Below are positions 33,001-39,000 of a stretch of 64,000 nt of DNA, piece after piece; positions within the stretch are counted from its first letter, which is position 1; each line of letters opens with the position of its first letter. This stretch comes from Escherichia coli (GTDB lineage: Bacteria > Pseudomonadota > Gammaproteobacteria > Enterobacterales > Enterobacteriaceae). Made by a program: the position numbers. The stretch lies in assembly GCF_003334815.1 (NCBI RefSeq), contig NZ_QOWO01000011.1; one strand, written 5' to 3'.

Positions 33001-36000
33001 TTCCGCGAAATGGCACCCGCCAAAGCGACCCGCGATATGTTCCTCGATGATCAGGGCAACCCGGACAGCAAAAAATCACTCACTTCGCATCTGGCTTCCG
33101 GCACACCGGGTACGGTAGCAGGTTTCTCGCTGGCGCTGGATAAATACGGCACCATGCCGCTGAACAAAGTCGTGCAGCCCGCGTTTAAACTGGCACGCGA
33201 TGGTTTTATCGTTAACGACGCGCTGGCTGACGATCTCAAAACCTACGGTAGCGAAGTGTTGCCGAATCACGAAAACAGTAAAGCTATCTTCTGGAAAGAG
33301 GGCGAGCCGCTGAAAAAGGGCGACACGCTGGTGCAGGCGAACCTGGCAAAGAGCCTGGAGATGATTGCTGAAAACGGCCCGGACGAATTCTATAAAGGCA
33401 CGATTGCGGAACAGATCGCCCAGGAGATGCAGAAAAACGGTGGCTTGATCACTAAAGAAGATTTAGCAGCCTATAAAGCGGTCGAACGCACTCCGATAAG
33501 CGGCGATTATCGCGGGTATCAGGTTTACTCCATGCCACCGCCATCCTCCGGCGGGATCCATATCGTACAAATCCTCAATATTCTGGAAAACTTCGATATG
33601 AAGAAATACGGCTTTGGCAGCGCCGATGCGATGCAAATCATGGCAGAAGCGGAGAAATACGCCTACGCCGACCGCTCGGAATATCTTGGCGACCCGGATT
33701 TTGTCAAAGTACCGTGGCAGGCGCTGACCAATAAAGCCTATGCCAAATCTATTGCCGATCAAATTGATATCAATAAAGCGAAGCCATCCAGCGAAATTCG
33801 CCCCGGCAAGCTTGCGCCTTATGAGAGTAATCAAACTACCCATTACTCAGTGGTGGATAAAGATGGTAACGCGGTGGCGGTGACCTATACGCTGAACACC
33901 ACCTTCGGTACGGGCATTGTCGCGGGCGAGAGCGGTATTCTGCTTAATAACCAGATGGATGATTTCTCCGCCAAACCGGGCGTACCGAACGTTTACGGGC
34001 TGGTGGGCGGTGATGCCAACGCCGTCGGGCCGAACAAACGCCCGCTGTCGTCGATGTCGCCGACCATTGTGGTGAAAGACGGTAAAACCTGGCTGGTTAC
34101 CGGTAGCCCAGGCGGTAGCCGGATCATCACTACAGTGCTGCAAATGGTGGTGAATAGCATCGATTATGGCTTGAACGTCGCCGAAGCGACCAATGCGCCG
34201 CGTTTCCACCATCAGTGGTTGCCGGACGAGCTGCGTGTCGAAAAAGGGTTTAGCCCGGATACGCTCAAGCTGCTGGAAGCAAAAGGTCAGAAAGTGGCGC
34301 TGAAAGAGGCGATGGGCAGTACACAAAGCATTATGGTTGGGCCGGACGGTGAGTTGTACGGCGCATCCGACCCGCGCTCGGTGGATGATTTAACGGCGGG
34401 GTACTAAGGTTAGCGGCCCTCTTCGTGGGAAGAGGGCTATTTTGTCAGGGCAAGCCGAAGGTAGCCTTTTTTATTTCGTAATCCTGTAGATATTCTTCCA
34501 GCGGTTTTGCCGTTCCCAGAGAATGAATTTCACCACTGTCTTTATCAATAATAAAAGGTGCGTTACCAGCTAAGCGCGCGGCCTCATCTCCAGTTTCGAG
34601 AAATTCTCGTGCTTCGAAACAGAAATACCAGCCCTGGCTAAAGCGTCCATGTAGAGTAATGACGACCGGGAGATCTGCATCATCAAGGTAATGGTTCGCT
34701 TTCGCGAATGCGTCGTGATAAGTAATCATAATTATAATAAATATTATTGTTGAGTGTTATATTATTATTCCTGTGTGATACATTGAGCAAAGACGCGTTC
34801 ATCTTCGTCAAAGATATTATTAAATGCTGGTTTTGAAAAAAGTTCATCGGATAAGATATAGTCACGAAATAAGTATCTGCTAATATTTTATGATTTCTTT
34901 TTCAGAACGTCGAACGGGATTTTCTTATTTAAGATATCAGAATCTTATGATTCGGGTAAAATTCTAAATAAATCAACATGTCATTAAAATCATCATAGCC
35001 ATTAGCTATTTCGGCTAAAATAGAGACTACATGTCTTCGGTCCATCTCACTTAAGGAGTGTAGTTCCGTTGTAAGTTTTTCCATAGCTTGCACTGCTAAA
35101 TTTCGAACAAGGAATTTTCTGCTGGTAATCTCTAAAAAGATGGCATGGTTTACAATGATTTTTGTTTCCTTTTGATTATTATGAACAACTGTCCATGATT
35201 TCGTTTAAGAATGAAGAGAAATCACTAAACGAACTGAATATATTTTCTGTGCCAATATTATCTCTAATTTCAAAAAAGTTACTTTTAATGTCATAAGTAA
35301 ATATTGAAATGCTATAATCCCCGATCACTAACCGTTCTTGTAGATCAGGGTTTATGAAATCATCATTATTTCTATAAAATTCATTTACGGCAAAAAGGTT
35401 TTTAACTGAAGGTTCTGGAATCGAGAGGCTAAATAATCGTAATCCATTAACTTCGAATCCATCCATTGCTCTTAAAAAAGTAAGATAATCAGGTTGATTC
35501 TTAAAAAGAATACTAACTTCATTACATAACTTCTCCAGGCAATTAGTTGAATTAGAATTAAATTCTATTTGGATTATACTTTCAATAAATGATTCCTTGA
35601 GCGGTGCTTCAAATGGATAGTCTAAATCATTCATCATTTTTATTAATTTATTTATTTGGGTTTTAGTCATCATTTTGTGTGGTCCATAATATTTTTCATG
35701 GGAGGATAAATTGAGCCAGATGGAATGGCCCAGGGAGTGATTTTGCTTTCACCTACTAATATTCCCTTAGCTATTCGTGATTGCATGTTAGTAAAAACTT
35801 TATGATATGGTTCGTTTTCGATTAATACTAAATTTTCGAAATCATTAGTACCACCATCATCTAGAGATAGTTTATGGTGAACATTATAATTTAGAGGAAC
35901 ATTGCCCTTTCTCATTCTTAAAAGGTCTTCGGCGTTGAATCTTCCAGATGCTTCGGAGGTTTTTGCAAGTTTGATAAGAAAATTTTTTCTTACAGTTTTA

Positions 36001-39000
36001 TTAAACTCCTTTCGTAAGTTAGCTAAGTCTTTTGAAGGTCTCTTAATGTATATTATTTCTATTATGTCTATACCATCAAGAAGTTTTTGTTGACCTCTAA
36101 GTTTGCCTAAGTAACTATTTATTTCTGTATATGTATCAACATTAGAACGCTTTGTTAAAAGAATAGATGCTGTTGCTATCGCTATGCCCGCTGTTTTTTC
36201 ATTTAGTATTTGATCATAGCCTTTTATTGCATCTCCACCCAGTTTTTCCGCAGTATCTCTGAATCCTTCAATGTTCCCATTGTATACGCCACCAGCAGCA
36301 AGTAGCCTGCCAATAGCTTTGCTGTTTAACGTTTTGAAACGATTATTTGTTTGGTTTTTTGAATTTGGTAAAAACAAACGGTTATAATTTTCAGGGAGTG
36401 CCAAATAGCTGAACTCGGTATTTGCGATAAGATGTTGACAGAGGATAAATTCATAACTAATAGTTATTGTTTCTGTATCCAGTTGGTTTTCAATGATCTG
36501 GTGATGAATAGCCGATAAAAAAGCGCCTCTTAGTTGTATATAATAATACTTTTCCAATCTACCAAATCTATTTATTCGATAGAAGTCAAATCCCATAAAT
36601 AATTGTTCATTATTGTTAATGGAATTAATAAATAATGGAGTGCTTTTATCAATTAATTTACAAAATGTTATACCATGGAACTGTGAACCAAGCCCCGTAT
36701 TATTAATATTATTTAAGAGTGAGAATGTAAATATTTCATCCTCATGCCCGCTCTGCCAACGATTACCTGTAGACTCAGAAGTCCCACAACCTGCGGAGAT
36801 GCTTCCTTGTTGTTCTCCCGTTACTGTCAGGTAAACAATATTACTCATCCCTGAAAAGTCCTTTTATGGCATGCTATTTTATCAATGGCAATATTATGCT
36901 TGTTAATTGTTATTTATTTACTCCAGGAAATTGTAGGCGTATATATTAAAAAATAAAATATTACACTTTAGGAAGTAATTATGAGTTAAATCTCAATATA
37001 TGTATTGGGCAAATAAATACCTTAAAGGAAGGTATGTCGATTTTGAATGACACCCTTTTTCCATCTCAGAAAAAGGGCACTATCTTACTTCACCCGCGCC
37101 ATATAATATGCATCGACATATTCACCATTACGCAATGCGTACTTCTTACCAGTCCCTTCAATTTCAAAGCCGTATTTTTTATAGACCTTAATTGCCGGGG
37201 CGTTATCGACAAACACGGTTAGTTCAATGCGATCTACCCGCAACCAGTTGTCGCACATTTCAATCATCTCTCGCATCAGGGCGCTGGCGACGCCGCGGTT
37301 CTTCCAACGAGAGTCGACACAGATACCAAAATCGGCAACATGACTGCGGCGTGGGCGCTGTTGCACGTCAATGGTGAGATGGCCCACGACGTCTCCATCA
37401 ATACAGGCGACGAGTTGCTTGATGCCGGGACGATCGGCGAGTCGCTCCTGCCACATATGATCGGAAGGATGAGGCACCTGTAGTGTGTTGCAATACACCT
37501 CCGGCTGGGCGTGAATCTGCCTGATGGCCTCGTAATCCCGTGTTTCTGCGTGGCGTATTACTATCTCACTCATTCCTTTGTCCTCTTTGGGGTAAATGTC
37601 CCTTTCAACATCATTGACTTTCAAATGCGAGTCAAATGCATTTTTTTGCAAAAAGTGTTGGACAAGTGCGAATGAGAATGATTATTATTGTCTCGCGATC
37701 AGGAAGACCCTCGCGGAGAACCTGAAAGCACGACATTGCTCACATTGCTTCCAGTATTACTTAGCCAGCCGGGTGCTGGCTTTTTTTTTGATCTTTCGTT
37801 CTCAATTTATCCACGGGAGTGCTTGTGTTCGTTATGCGCACTCCAGTAGGAACCACGTCCGCTTTGCGCTAAGGTGTAAATAACCACCTTAAAAAGGACG
37901 AAATCATGGTCATCAACTGCGCCTTTATTGGCTTCGGCAAAAGCACCACCCGTTACCATCTGCCGTATGTACTTAACCGCAAGGATAGCTGGCATGTCGC
38001 GCATATTTTTCGTCGCCATGCGAAGCCGGAAGAACAGGCTCCCATTTATTCCCATATCCATTTCACCAGCGATCTCGACGAAGTACTAAACGATCCCGAT
38101 GTTAAGCTGGTTGTTGTCTGCACCCACGCGGACAGCCATTTCGAGTACGCGAAACGCGCGCTGGAAGCCGGGAAAAATGTGCTGGTCGAAAAACCGTTCA
38201 CTCCGACACTTGCGCAGGCGAAAGAGCTGTTTGCGTTGGCGAAAAGCAAAGGGCTGACCGTCACGCCGTATCAGAATCGTCGCTTTGACTCCTGCTTCCT
38301 GACAGCGAAAAAAGCGATTGAAAGTGGCAAGTTGGGAGAGATTGTTGAAGTGGAAAGCCATTTTGACTATTACCGCCCGGTGGCAGAAACCAAACCTGGG
38401 CTGCCGCAGGATGGCGCGTTTTATGGCCTTGGTGTGCATACGATGGACCAGATTATTTCTCTGTTCGGTCGCCCGGATCACGTCGCTTATGACATCCGCA
38501 GCCTGCGTAATAAAGCCAATCCTGACGACACCTTTGAAGCGCAACTGTTTTATGGCGACCTGAAAGCCATCGTCAAAACCAGCCATCTGGTGAAAATCGA
38601 TTATCCGAAATTTATCGTTCACGGTAAGAAAGGTTCGTTTATTAAATACGGTATCGACCAGCAGGAAACCAGCCTGAAGGCTAATATTATGCCGGGCGAA
38701 CCGGGATTCGCAGCGGATGATTCGGTCGGTGTGCTGGAGTATGTCAATGACGAGGGCGTGACGGTCAGAGAAGAGATGAAGCCGGAGATGGGCGATTACG
38801 GGCGCGTTTATGATGCGTTGTATCAAACCATCACCCACGGTGCGCCAAATTACGTCAAGGAATCTGAAGTTCTTACCAATCTGGAAATCCTTGAACGCGG
38901 ATTTGAGCAAGCCTCTCCCTCCACAGTAACTCTCGCTAAGTAAGTTTGATGGCCCCTCGAATAGTTCAATTTTTTTGAACAGAGGGGTCAATTTTCACCC

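Follow-up and report, generated by a model that had tools for sequence, protein, structure and literature searches.

The 64,000-nucleotide stretch of Escherichia coli DNA analysed here (contig NZ_QOWO01000011.1 of assembly GCF_003334815.1, hereafter the window) carries, between ggt and yhhY, an interval of 2,677 bp (34408-37084) that spans precisely the distance from the ggt stop codon (34407) to the yhhY stop codon (37085) and that holds yhhZ, yrhA, yrhD and yrhB, all on the minus strand. We read it as the yhhZ-yrhA-yrhD-yrhB locus of E. coli, a polymorphic-toxin cassette of the type VI secretion kind that stands as an orphan and is made up of an Hcp-HNH deoxyribonuclease (DNase), its YrhA immunity protein and the relics of older immunity genes, and we give this reading a probability of roughly 85%. 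Its domain content, synteny, module boundaries, gene remnants and insertion sequence (IS) IS1 state are matters of direct observation. The GC content of the interval is 33.6%, compared with a mean of 53.5% (standard deviation 2.1, minimum 48.5%) in 561 other segments of the same length, which places it about 9.6 standard deviations low. In yhhZ and yrhA the GC content of third codon positions (GC3) is down to 0.26 and 0.24, respectively, compared with 0.63 in ggt, 0.57 in yhhY and a range of 0.57-0.65 over ugpQ, yhhA, ggt, yhhY, yhhX and yhhW, while yrhB is intermediate (45.6% GC, GC3 0.40). These values bear out the AT-richness relative to the flanks that the first-pass annotation had noticed by eye, and support the description of the island as a compositionally foreign region.

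The toxin gene, yhhZ (35670-36848, minus strand), encodes a protein of 392 aa that is an exact match to YHHZ_ECOLI, the YhhZ of K-12, and that consists of an Hcp/TssD tube domain (residues 1-147), a conserved linker reaching to about residue 220-250 and, at the C-terminus, a DNase domain of the HNH (His-Me finger) kind. The N-terminus is recognised by Pfam PF05638 (T6SS_HCP; E 2.5e-11, residues 27-139), residues 1-147 score 118 bits against the TssD model TIGR03344 (cutoff 58.9), and solved Hcp structures in the PDB are matched with E 2e-11 to 1e-5. The HNH catalytic core (35802-35879, minus strand) comprises H324, H325, D330, D331, G333, N335, N339 and H349; its residues (including H324, H325, N335, N339 and H349) do not vary among 13 full-length homologues, whose identity is 51-95%, and YhhZ has been classed in group 32 of the His-Me finger nucleases (PMC5714182). 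The region upstream of the gene (36849-37084, minus strand) has a GC content of 29.7% and contains a hairpin (37053-37077) just past the yhhY stop codon; predicted yhhZ promoters are given in PMC12428005, and promoter islands inside yhhZ and yrhA are listed in a table of the H-NS section of PMC3661553.

The start of yrhA (35179-35673, minus strand) overlaps the yhhZ stop by 4 nt. The gene is intact in the window, and its product of 164 aa is probably the ETI1-type immunity protein that is cognate to the HNH toxin of YhhZ. It belongs to the YrhA family NF038335 of NCBIfam (122 bits, cutoff 55), and neither a Pfam match nor, by sequence, a relative of solved structure was found for it. Homologues of 164 aa (66-68% identity) stand after an Hcp-HNH gene in Citrobacter koseri and C. 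freundii; the YrhA-like gene thus co-varies with the HNH C-terminal domain in these two species, and it is missing where the C-terminal domain differs. None of the four island proteins matched the PADLOC models of anti-phage defence. The toxin/immunity cassette that had been proposed at the outset agrees with the predicted content of the interval, namely an Hcp-HNH toxin in yhhZ, an immunity protein in yrhA and an Imm35 protein in yrhB.

In the closest known system, that of E. coli 55989, the island likewise stands between ggt and yhhY, with 391 of 392 residues of YhhZ and 162 of 164 residues of YrhA identical. The orphan Hcp-HNH of 55989 and of the O104:H4 strain C227-11 was reported to be a DNase that is delivered by T6SS2, a type VI secretion system (T6SS), and neutralised by the downstream immunity protein ETI1 (PMC6730261; PMC6099711; bioRxiv 10.1101/2024.03.05.583533), and the last of these sources names it Hcp-ET1. 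The Hcp-ET1/ETI1 pair of C227-11, 55989 and STEC004 resembles the window locus in its Hcp-linker-HNH DNase architecture, in the immunity gene directly downstream and in its orphan location. It differs in background, since that of the window is K-12-like with no T6SS expected. Secretion, DNase activity and neutralisation would be properties taken over from published work on a protein of 99.7% identity. A related case is Usp, which was described along with YhhZ as an "evolved Hcp" and likewise joins an Hcp-like N-terminus to a C-terminal nuclease (pyocin-type) followed by immunity genes (PMC2907695); by that description it is set apart by another nuclease family and another locus.

At the ggt end of the island, yrhB (34445-34729, minus strand) encodes a 94-aa protein that covers 85 of the 85 model positions of Pfam Imm35 (PF15567; E 4.6e-23) and is 71-73% identical to Imm35 proteins of Citrobacter. 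The MG1655 record annotates it as a putative heat shock chaperone. Imm35 was reported to be specific for Tox-PL1 toxins (PMC3482391), and an Imm35 gene directly follows an Hcp-Gln_amidase (Tox-PL1) toxin in C. portucalensis (L015) and in an E. coli-like metagenome contig (L019). No Tox-PL1 domain (PF15644) was found in the window, and a search of 5,426 complete E. coli genomes, the set to which all genome counts below refer, turned up no PL1 C-terminal domain. With the Tox-PL1/Gln_amidase toxin domain that is its cognate missing from the window, yrhB is an orphan immunity gene here; some strains, STEC307 among them, have yrhB and nothing else of the island.

Between yrhB and yrhA lies a stretch that the first-pass annotation had called an ORF-poor spacer (poor in open reading frames, ORFs). 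It is not without genes, as tblastn detects two decayed immunity-type genes in it. One is the pseudogene remnant (34768-34926, minus strand) of a p85-type gene, an immunity-type gene of about 85 aa; it is matched at 51% identity (E 2e-15) by residues 2-54 of a Citrobacter protein (L016:8256-8513) and is interrupted by an in-frame stop and truncated; the intact p85 gene stands directly after a 417-aa Hcp-toxin variant in Citrobacter. The other is a 5'-truncated open frame (34929-35177, minus strand) matched at 40% identity (E 7e-15) by residues 8-80 of p84 (L014:8097-8351), an 84-aa gene of Salmonella located next after the Hcp370 toxin. This p84-like frame is open from 35177, and its first starts are only a GTG at 35093 and an ATG at 35084; the annotated yrhD (34929-35084, minus strand) corresponds to its C-terminal 51 codons read from the internal ATG. 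Neither Pfam nor NCBIfam has a family for p84, p85 or the p78/p83 genes of other arrays, and the toxins of 417 aa and 370 aa likewise have C-terminal domains that fall into no family of either.

Exact-protein look-ups beyond E. coli gave contexts that, together with E. coli, cover three genera (Escherichia, Citrobacter and Salmonella), and all of them occupy the ggt-yhhY (or ggt-yhhX) site. C. koseri and C. freundii have homologues of YhhZ over its full length (70-73% identity), and many further homologues match only the first 58-64% of YhhZ and bear other C-terminal domains. Read from yhhY to ggt, the array of C. koseri (L011) consists of Hcp-HNH and a 164-aa YrhA-like gene; that of C. freundii (L012) of a 294-aa gene, Hcp-HNH, a YrhA-like gene, p85, Imm35 and p83; that of a Citrobacter (L016) of the 294-aa gene, Hcp417, p85, Imm35 and p78; and that of C. 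portucalensis (L015) of the 294-aa gene, Hcp-Gln_amidase (Tox-PL1), Imm35 and p83. Salmonella enterica (L014) has Hcp370, p84, yrhB-like and hcp fragments, p78 and a transposase, and the metagenome contig (L019) an Hcp-PL1 gene and a 94-aa Imm35 gene. Set beside these, the window array reads Hcp-HNH, YrhA, truncated p84, p85 pseudogene and Imm35. In every genus examined the cassettes are AT-rich relative to their own flanks, and the presence of the same cassette family at the same site in three genera means that AT-richness is no sign of recent acquisition. Nucleotide identity between the cassettes of E. coli and those of Citrobacter or Salmonella is 70-74%, and that of the adjacent yhhY 76-79%. 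As side observations, the yrhB-like fragment of the Salmonella locus (8448-8600) and a partial second hcp N-terminal fragment (8737-8949) lie downstream of Hcp370/p84 and ahead of the transposase, and no yhhY is called there, with just a short match left to that end of the E. coli locus where yhhY lies. The 294-aa gene, conserved between yhhY and hcp in the three Citrobacter arrays that carry it (for example L012 7845-8729), has about 50% GC and no E. coli counterpart, and its product gives a sub-threshold match to the PA3715 domain of NCBIfam (58 bits, cutoff 70).

Within Escherichia it is L019 that sets the module boundaries. Residues 1 to about 229-251 of YhhZ share 71-75% identity with the variants of Citrobacter and Salmonella and 91% with that of L019, while the C-terminal domains are unrelated. 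At the nucleotide level L019 and the window are 98.6% identical from yhhX to position 36192 (about codon 219 of yhhZ), unrelated from there on, and alignable again from 34733 with 92.4% identity. These breakpoints delimit an allele-specific module (34734-36191, minus strand) that contains the HNH C-terminal domain, yrhA, the yrhD remnant and the p85 pseudogene, replaced in L019 by the Tox-PL1 C-terminal domain; the module is thus one swappable unit, placed ahead of older immunity genes that are kept or decaying. The organisation recalls the Rhs and CdiA polymorphic-toxin loci (Zhang et al. 2012, PMC3482391), in which a conserved N-terminal delivery part is combined with a swappable C-terminal toxin and its cognate immunity gene, with old immunity genes and pseudogenes downstream, although the delivery part is here an Hcp tube protein in place of Rhs, PAAR or CdiA. 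In the E. coli array no C-terminal fragments of displaced toxins were detected, only immunity remnants.

Within E. coli the island is far from universal. It is present (at least 80% of its length, at 96-100% identity) in 3,758 of the 5,426 genomes; 986 are empty, with a 60-bp ggt-yhhY spacer bearing a single hairpin; and another 343, mostly O157, hold an unrelated AT-rich cassette at the same site (1.9 kb, 31.7% GC), which encodes a 303-aa DUF4225 protein (L005, O157, 7109-8963; also L004, EC974). This DUF4225 protein was compared with the 294-aa protein of Citrobacter and with the island genes as a possible relative, and proved unrelated to any of them; it has no relative either among the remaining genes of the Citrobacter arrays. 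Copies of the island in E. coli diverge by up to about 3.7%, as deep as core genes between lineages, and homology to the empty-site genome stops exactly at the ggt and yhhY stop codons.

The strong hairpins that had been said to bracket the island do exist at its ends; their supposed role as delimiters does not survive comparison, and they are better described as the terminators of the two flanking genes. The left one (34415-34438, plus strand) is the intrinsic terminator of ggt, with a 10-bp stem followed by ATTTTGT (-19.1 kcal/mol; z -2.2 on the plus and -4.35 on the minus strand), and is core sequence outside the island proper: it is found also in the DUF4225 and yrhB-only variants, and the homology of Citrobacter and Salmonella extends to window position 34438. 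The right one (37053-37077; stem of 9 bp on the plus and 11 bp on the minus strand, -15.0 kcal/mol on the yhhY sense strand, z -3.3) lies 7 nt downstream of the yhhY stop; other variants of the locus lack it, and it is specific to the cassette of Escherichia. With 4 observed and 3.2 expected, terminator-like sites are no more numerous in the region than by chance, and the hairpins are informative only in that they sit directly 3' of the stop codons of ggt and yhhY. Since the left hairpin is shared across variants, the right one is cassette-specific and homology to the empty site ends at the stop codons, they are terminators of the flanking genes and no ends of a mobile element. Other signs of mobility were also sought. 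Around the island, direct and inverted repeats were looked for as traces of an insertion, which gave only short AT-rich matches of the chance kind, and divergence of the flanks from the empty-site genome H105 was uniform (92-97% identity), with no clear peak beside the island. The window has no transposase, integrase or recombinase ORF and no tRNA gene, and the IS1 terminal repeat is not matched anywhere in its 64 kb at up to 3 mismatches, in line with the earlier statement that no IS element is present. An integrase-mediated genomic island was considered and finds no support, there being no integrase or recombinase, no tRNA and no flanking direct repeats beyond the chance kind; an IS1 insertion or composite element in the window likewise finds none, as IS1 ends are lacking and the target 9-mer is present in a single copy.

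That target comes from the comparison with MG1655, with which the window is collinear over 3,554,712-3,619,487, the only differences being 15 single-nucleotide polymorphisms (SNPs), one extra C at window position 58256 and 777 missing bp. The missing sequence corresponds to the IS1E of MG1655 (768 bp plus a 9-bp duplication), which sits within yrhA after codon 130, flanked on either side by GACATTAAA; in the window the 9 bp are present once, unduplicated, as TTTAATGTC (35284-35292, plus strand). The MG1655 locus yhhZ-yrhA'-IS1E-yrhD-yrhB (b3442-b3446) is otherwise like that of the window, with identical YhhZ and YrhB, and differs in having IS1E and its duplication where the window has an intact yrhA and a single target copy; yhhZ is intact in MG1655 while IS1E splits yrhA (L001 5864-8310). 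The extra C falls in glpR (58106-58864, plus strand), which is intact here (252 aa) and a pseudogene in MG1655 through a 1-bp deletion at that place. The first-pass annotation had placed an IS1 copy in yrhA of MG1655, had asked for remnants of its 9-bp duplication and had left the choice between a non-MG1655 strain and an ancestral IS-free state. The alignment confirms the first point, the search for the duplication yielded the single target, and the pre-insertion yrhA, the 15 SNPs and the intact glpR fit the expected alternatives: the single unduplicated target identifies the window as a close K-12 relative, not MG1655, in the pre-insertion state. The IS1E of MG1655 is later and specific to the K-12 lineage. 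The 80 bp around the site are present in 3,775 genomes, continuous in 3,414 and split there in about 356-361, and the top exact matches to the MG1655 IS1E junction are K-12 laboratory derivatives. This intact-site query is a cleaner measure of the IS1E state than an 80-bp junction query, whose figure of 1,020 carriers is inflated, since any IS1 end no more than about 0.5 kb from a piece of yrhA was joined to it (as in L009). Other IS1 insertions are seen in natural isolates, namely in strain 200088 (L009) at 3152-3849, near the yrhA 3' end, and in strain WEM25 (L010), with one IS1 in yrhA and another in yhhZ (1857-2554 and 3308-4006); such independent insertions elsewhere in yrhA and yhhZ make the AT-rich island a recurrent IS1 target.

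Taken as a polymorphic-toxin cassette, the locus may be thought to work as follows. In T6SS-bearing strains YhhZ would become part of the Hcp tube and be shot into bacteria nearby, where its HNH domain would degrade DNA, and YrhA, translationally coupled to yhhZ, would neutralise the toxin in the producer and its kin. In a T6SS-less background near K-12 the cassette could confer immunity only. Recombination between about codon 220 of yhhZ and the sequence just ahead of yrhB would have replaced the toxin C-terminal domain together with its immunity gene, leaving behind the older immunity genes, that is, the p84-like gene (yrhD), the p85-like pseudogene and an intact yrhB directed against a papain-like Tox-PL1 variant. 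We further consider it probable, with less confidence than we place in the identity of the cassette, that ggt-yhhY is a long-lived Hcp-fused polymorphic-toxin locus of Escherichia, Citrobacter and Salmonella whose K-12-type array records serial C-terminal replacement: YrhD would be an immunity remnant, the spacer a second immunity pseudogene and YrhB an orphan anti-Tox-PL1 immunity protein, no chaperone, and MG1655 would carry an intact DNase toxin gene with its immunity gene broken by IS1E.

Several points weigh against the interpretation as a T6SS toxin with its immunity protein. The Pfam match to HNH (residues 322-343) is weak, with E 0.013, and the equation of YhhZ with the Hcp-ET1 type is indirect, drawn from reviews and from 99.7% identity to the 55989 protein. 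There are no T6SS genes within the window, and K-12, to which it is nearly identical, is without a T6SS according to PMC6730261; delivery is therefore not to be assumed for this strain. PMC2907695 regarded YhhZ as an "evolved Hcp" unlinked to T6SS function. MG1655 tolerates an intact yhhZ with a broken yrhA, which implies silencing, low expression or a residual function of the truncated YrhA. Lastly, p84 and p85 are taken for immunity genes solely from their position beside toxin genes. In an alternative reading YhhZ and YrhA would act independently of a T6SS, for instance as a toxin-antitoxin pair of the addiction type that stabilises the locus, as a bacteriocin-like nuclease released in the manner of Usp, or in an intracellular role, with YrhB a heat-shock chaperone as its MG1655 label has it. 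Such a role would suit an orphan cassette far from any T6SS cluster, kept with an intact yhhZ in T6SS-less K-12, and PMC2907695 proposed that there is no link to T6SS function. It nevertheless seems very improbable: reviews report T6SS2-dependent delivery and ETI1 neutralisation for Hcp-ET1 of 55989 and C227-11, the N-terminal domain scores far over the TssD cutoff, and YrhB is a clear Imm35 member whose relatives sit directly after Tox-PL1 toxins in related loci. An addiction module is opposed by the survival of MG1655 without an intact yrhA.

The history of the locus invites a different alternative, the one favoured by the first-pass annotation, in which a horizontal island was inserted recently, and once, between ggt and yhhY in one E. 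coli lineage. A GC content of 33.6%, GC3 values of 0.24-0.26 and the presence/absence polymorphism, with 986 empty 60-bp junctions and 343 DUF4225 cassettes, are what such an event would leave, and a study of O104:H4 marked the locus as genomic island Gist34 (PMC3309015). On the other hand, the interval is without integrase, tRNA, flanking direct repeat or IS; homologous cassettes lie at the identical site in Citrobacter and Salmonella, with a divergence (70-74% nucleotide identity) near that of yhhY (76-79%); copies within E. coli differ by up to about 3.7%, which is core-gene depth; and AT-richness is common to all cassettes at the locus in every genus examined. We hold a recent single insertion to be unlikely, if somewhat less so than a T6SS-independent role. 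An old polymorphic-toxin locus, long resident at ggt-yhhY and subject to module swapping and repeated loss, appears to fit the comparative data better than recent acquisition. What had been suggested as horizontal acquisition of a toxin/immunity cassette next to ryhB is thus retained as to the cassette, and is too simple as to acquisition, given the homologous cassettes at the same site in Citrobacter and Salmonella. A connection to ryhB was not found, and yhhY separates the two. ryhB itself (37724-37788, plus strand; Rfam RF00057, 83.1 bits) encodes a small RNA and is a neighbour outside the island, and yhhY (37085-37573, minus strand), an N-acetyltransferase gene, is the core right flank, from whose stop codon all locus variants become homologous.

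The finding is real and already known, in that the locus is catalogued in K-12, the effector family is characterised and the absent IS1 is explained by a strain other than MG1655. What is added is interpretive and incremental only: the relics of immunity genes and with them the origin of yrhD, the reading of yrhB as an orphan immunity gene against PL1, and the conservation of the locus in three genera, which speaks against taking AT-richness for recent acquisition. It is of little consequence beyond annotation hygiene, for which YrhD and the "spacer" could be re-annotated as immunity-gene relics and YrhB as an orphan Imm35 immunity protein. The locus is also a compact natural case of toxin-domain replacement on an Hcp carrier, and is usable for testing how Hcp-fused effectors diversify. 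Additionally, PMC3309015 assigned yhhZ-yrhAB to methionine-to-cysteine conversion, which appears to be an annotation error arising from gene names shared with yrhA/yrhB of Bacillus subtilis. Elsewhere, the window opens inside the 5' end of rhsB (positions 1-296, minus strand; MSGKPAARQGDMTQYGG...), a second orphan T6SS-type polymorphic-toxin locus in the same 64 kb. The only other stretch below 40% GC, at about 21505-21927 (about 35%), is the livK-panZ intergenic region of MG1655; of the SNPs relative to MG1655 near it, 21623 lies inside and 21941 just beyond, within livK.

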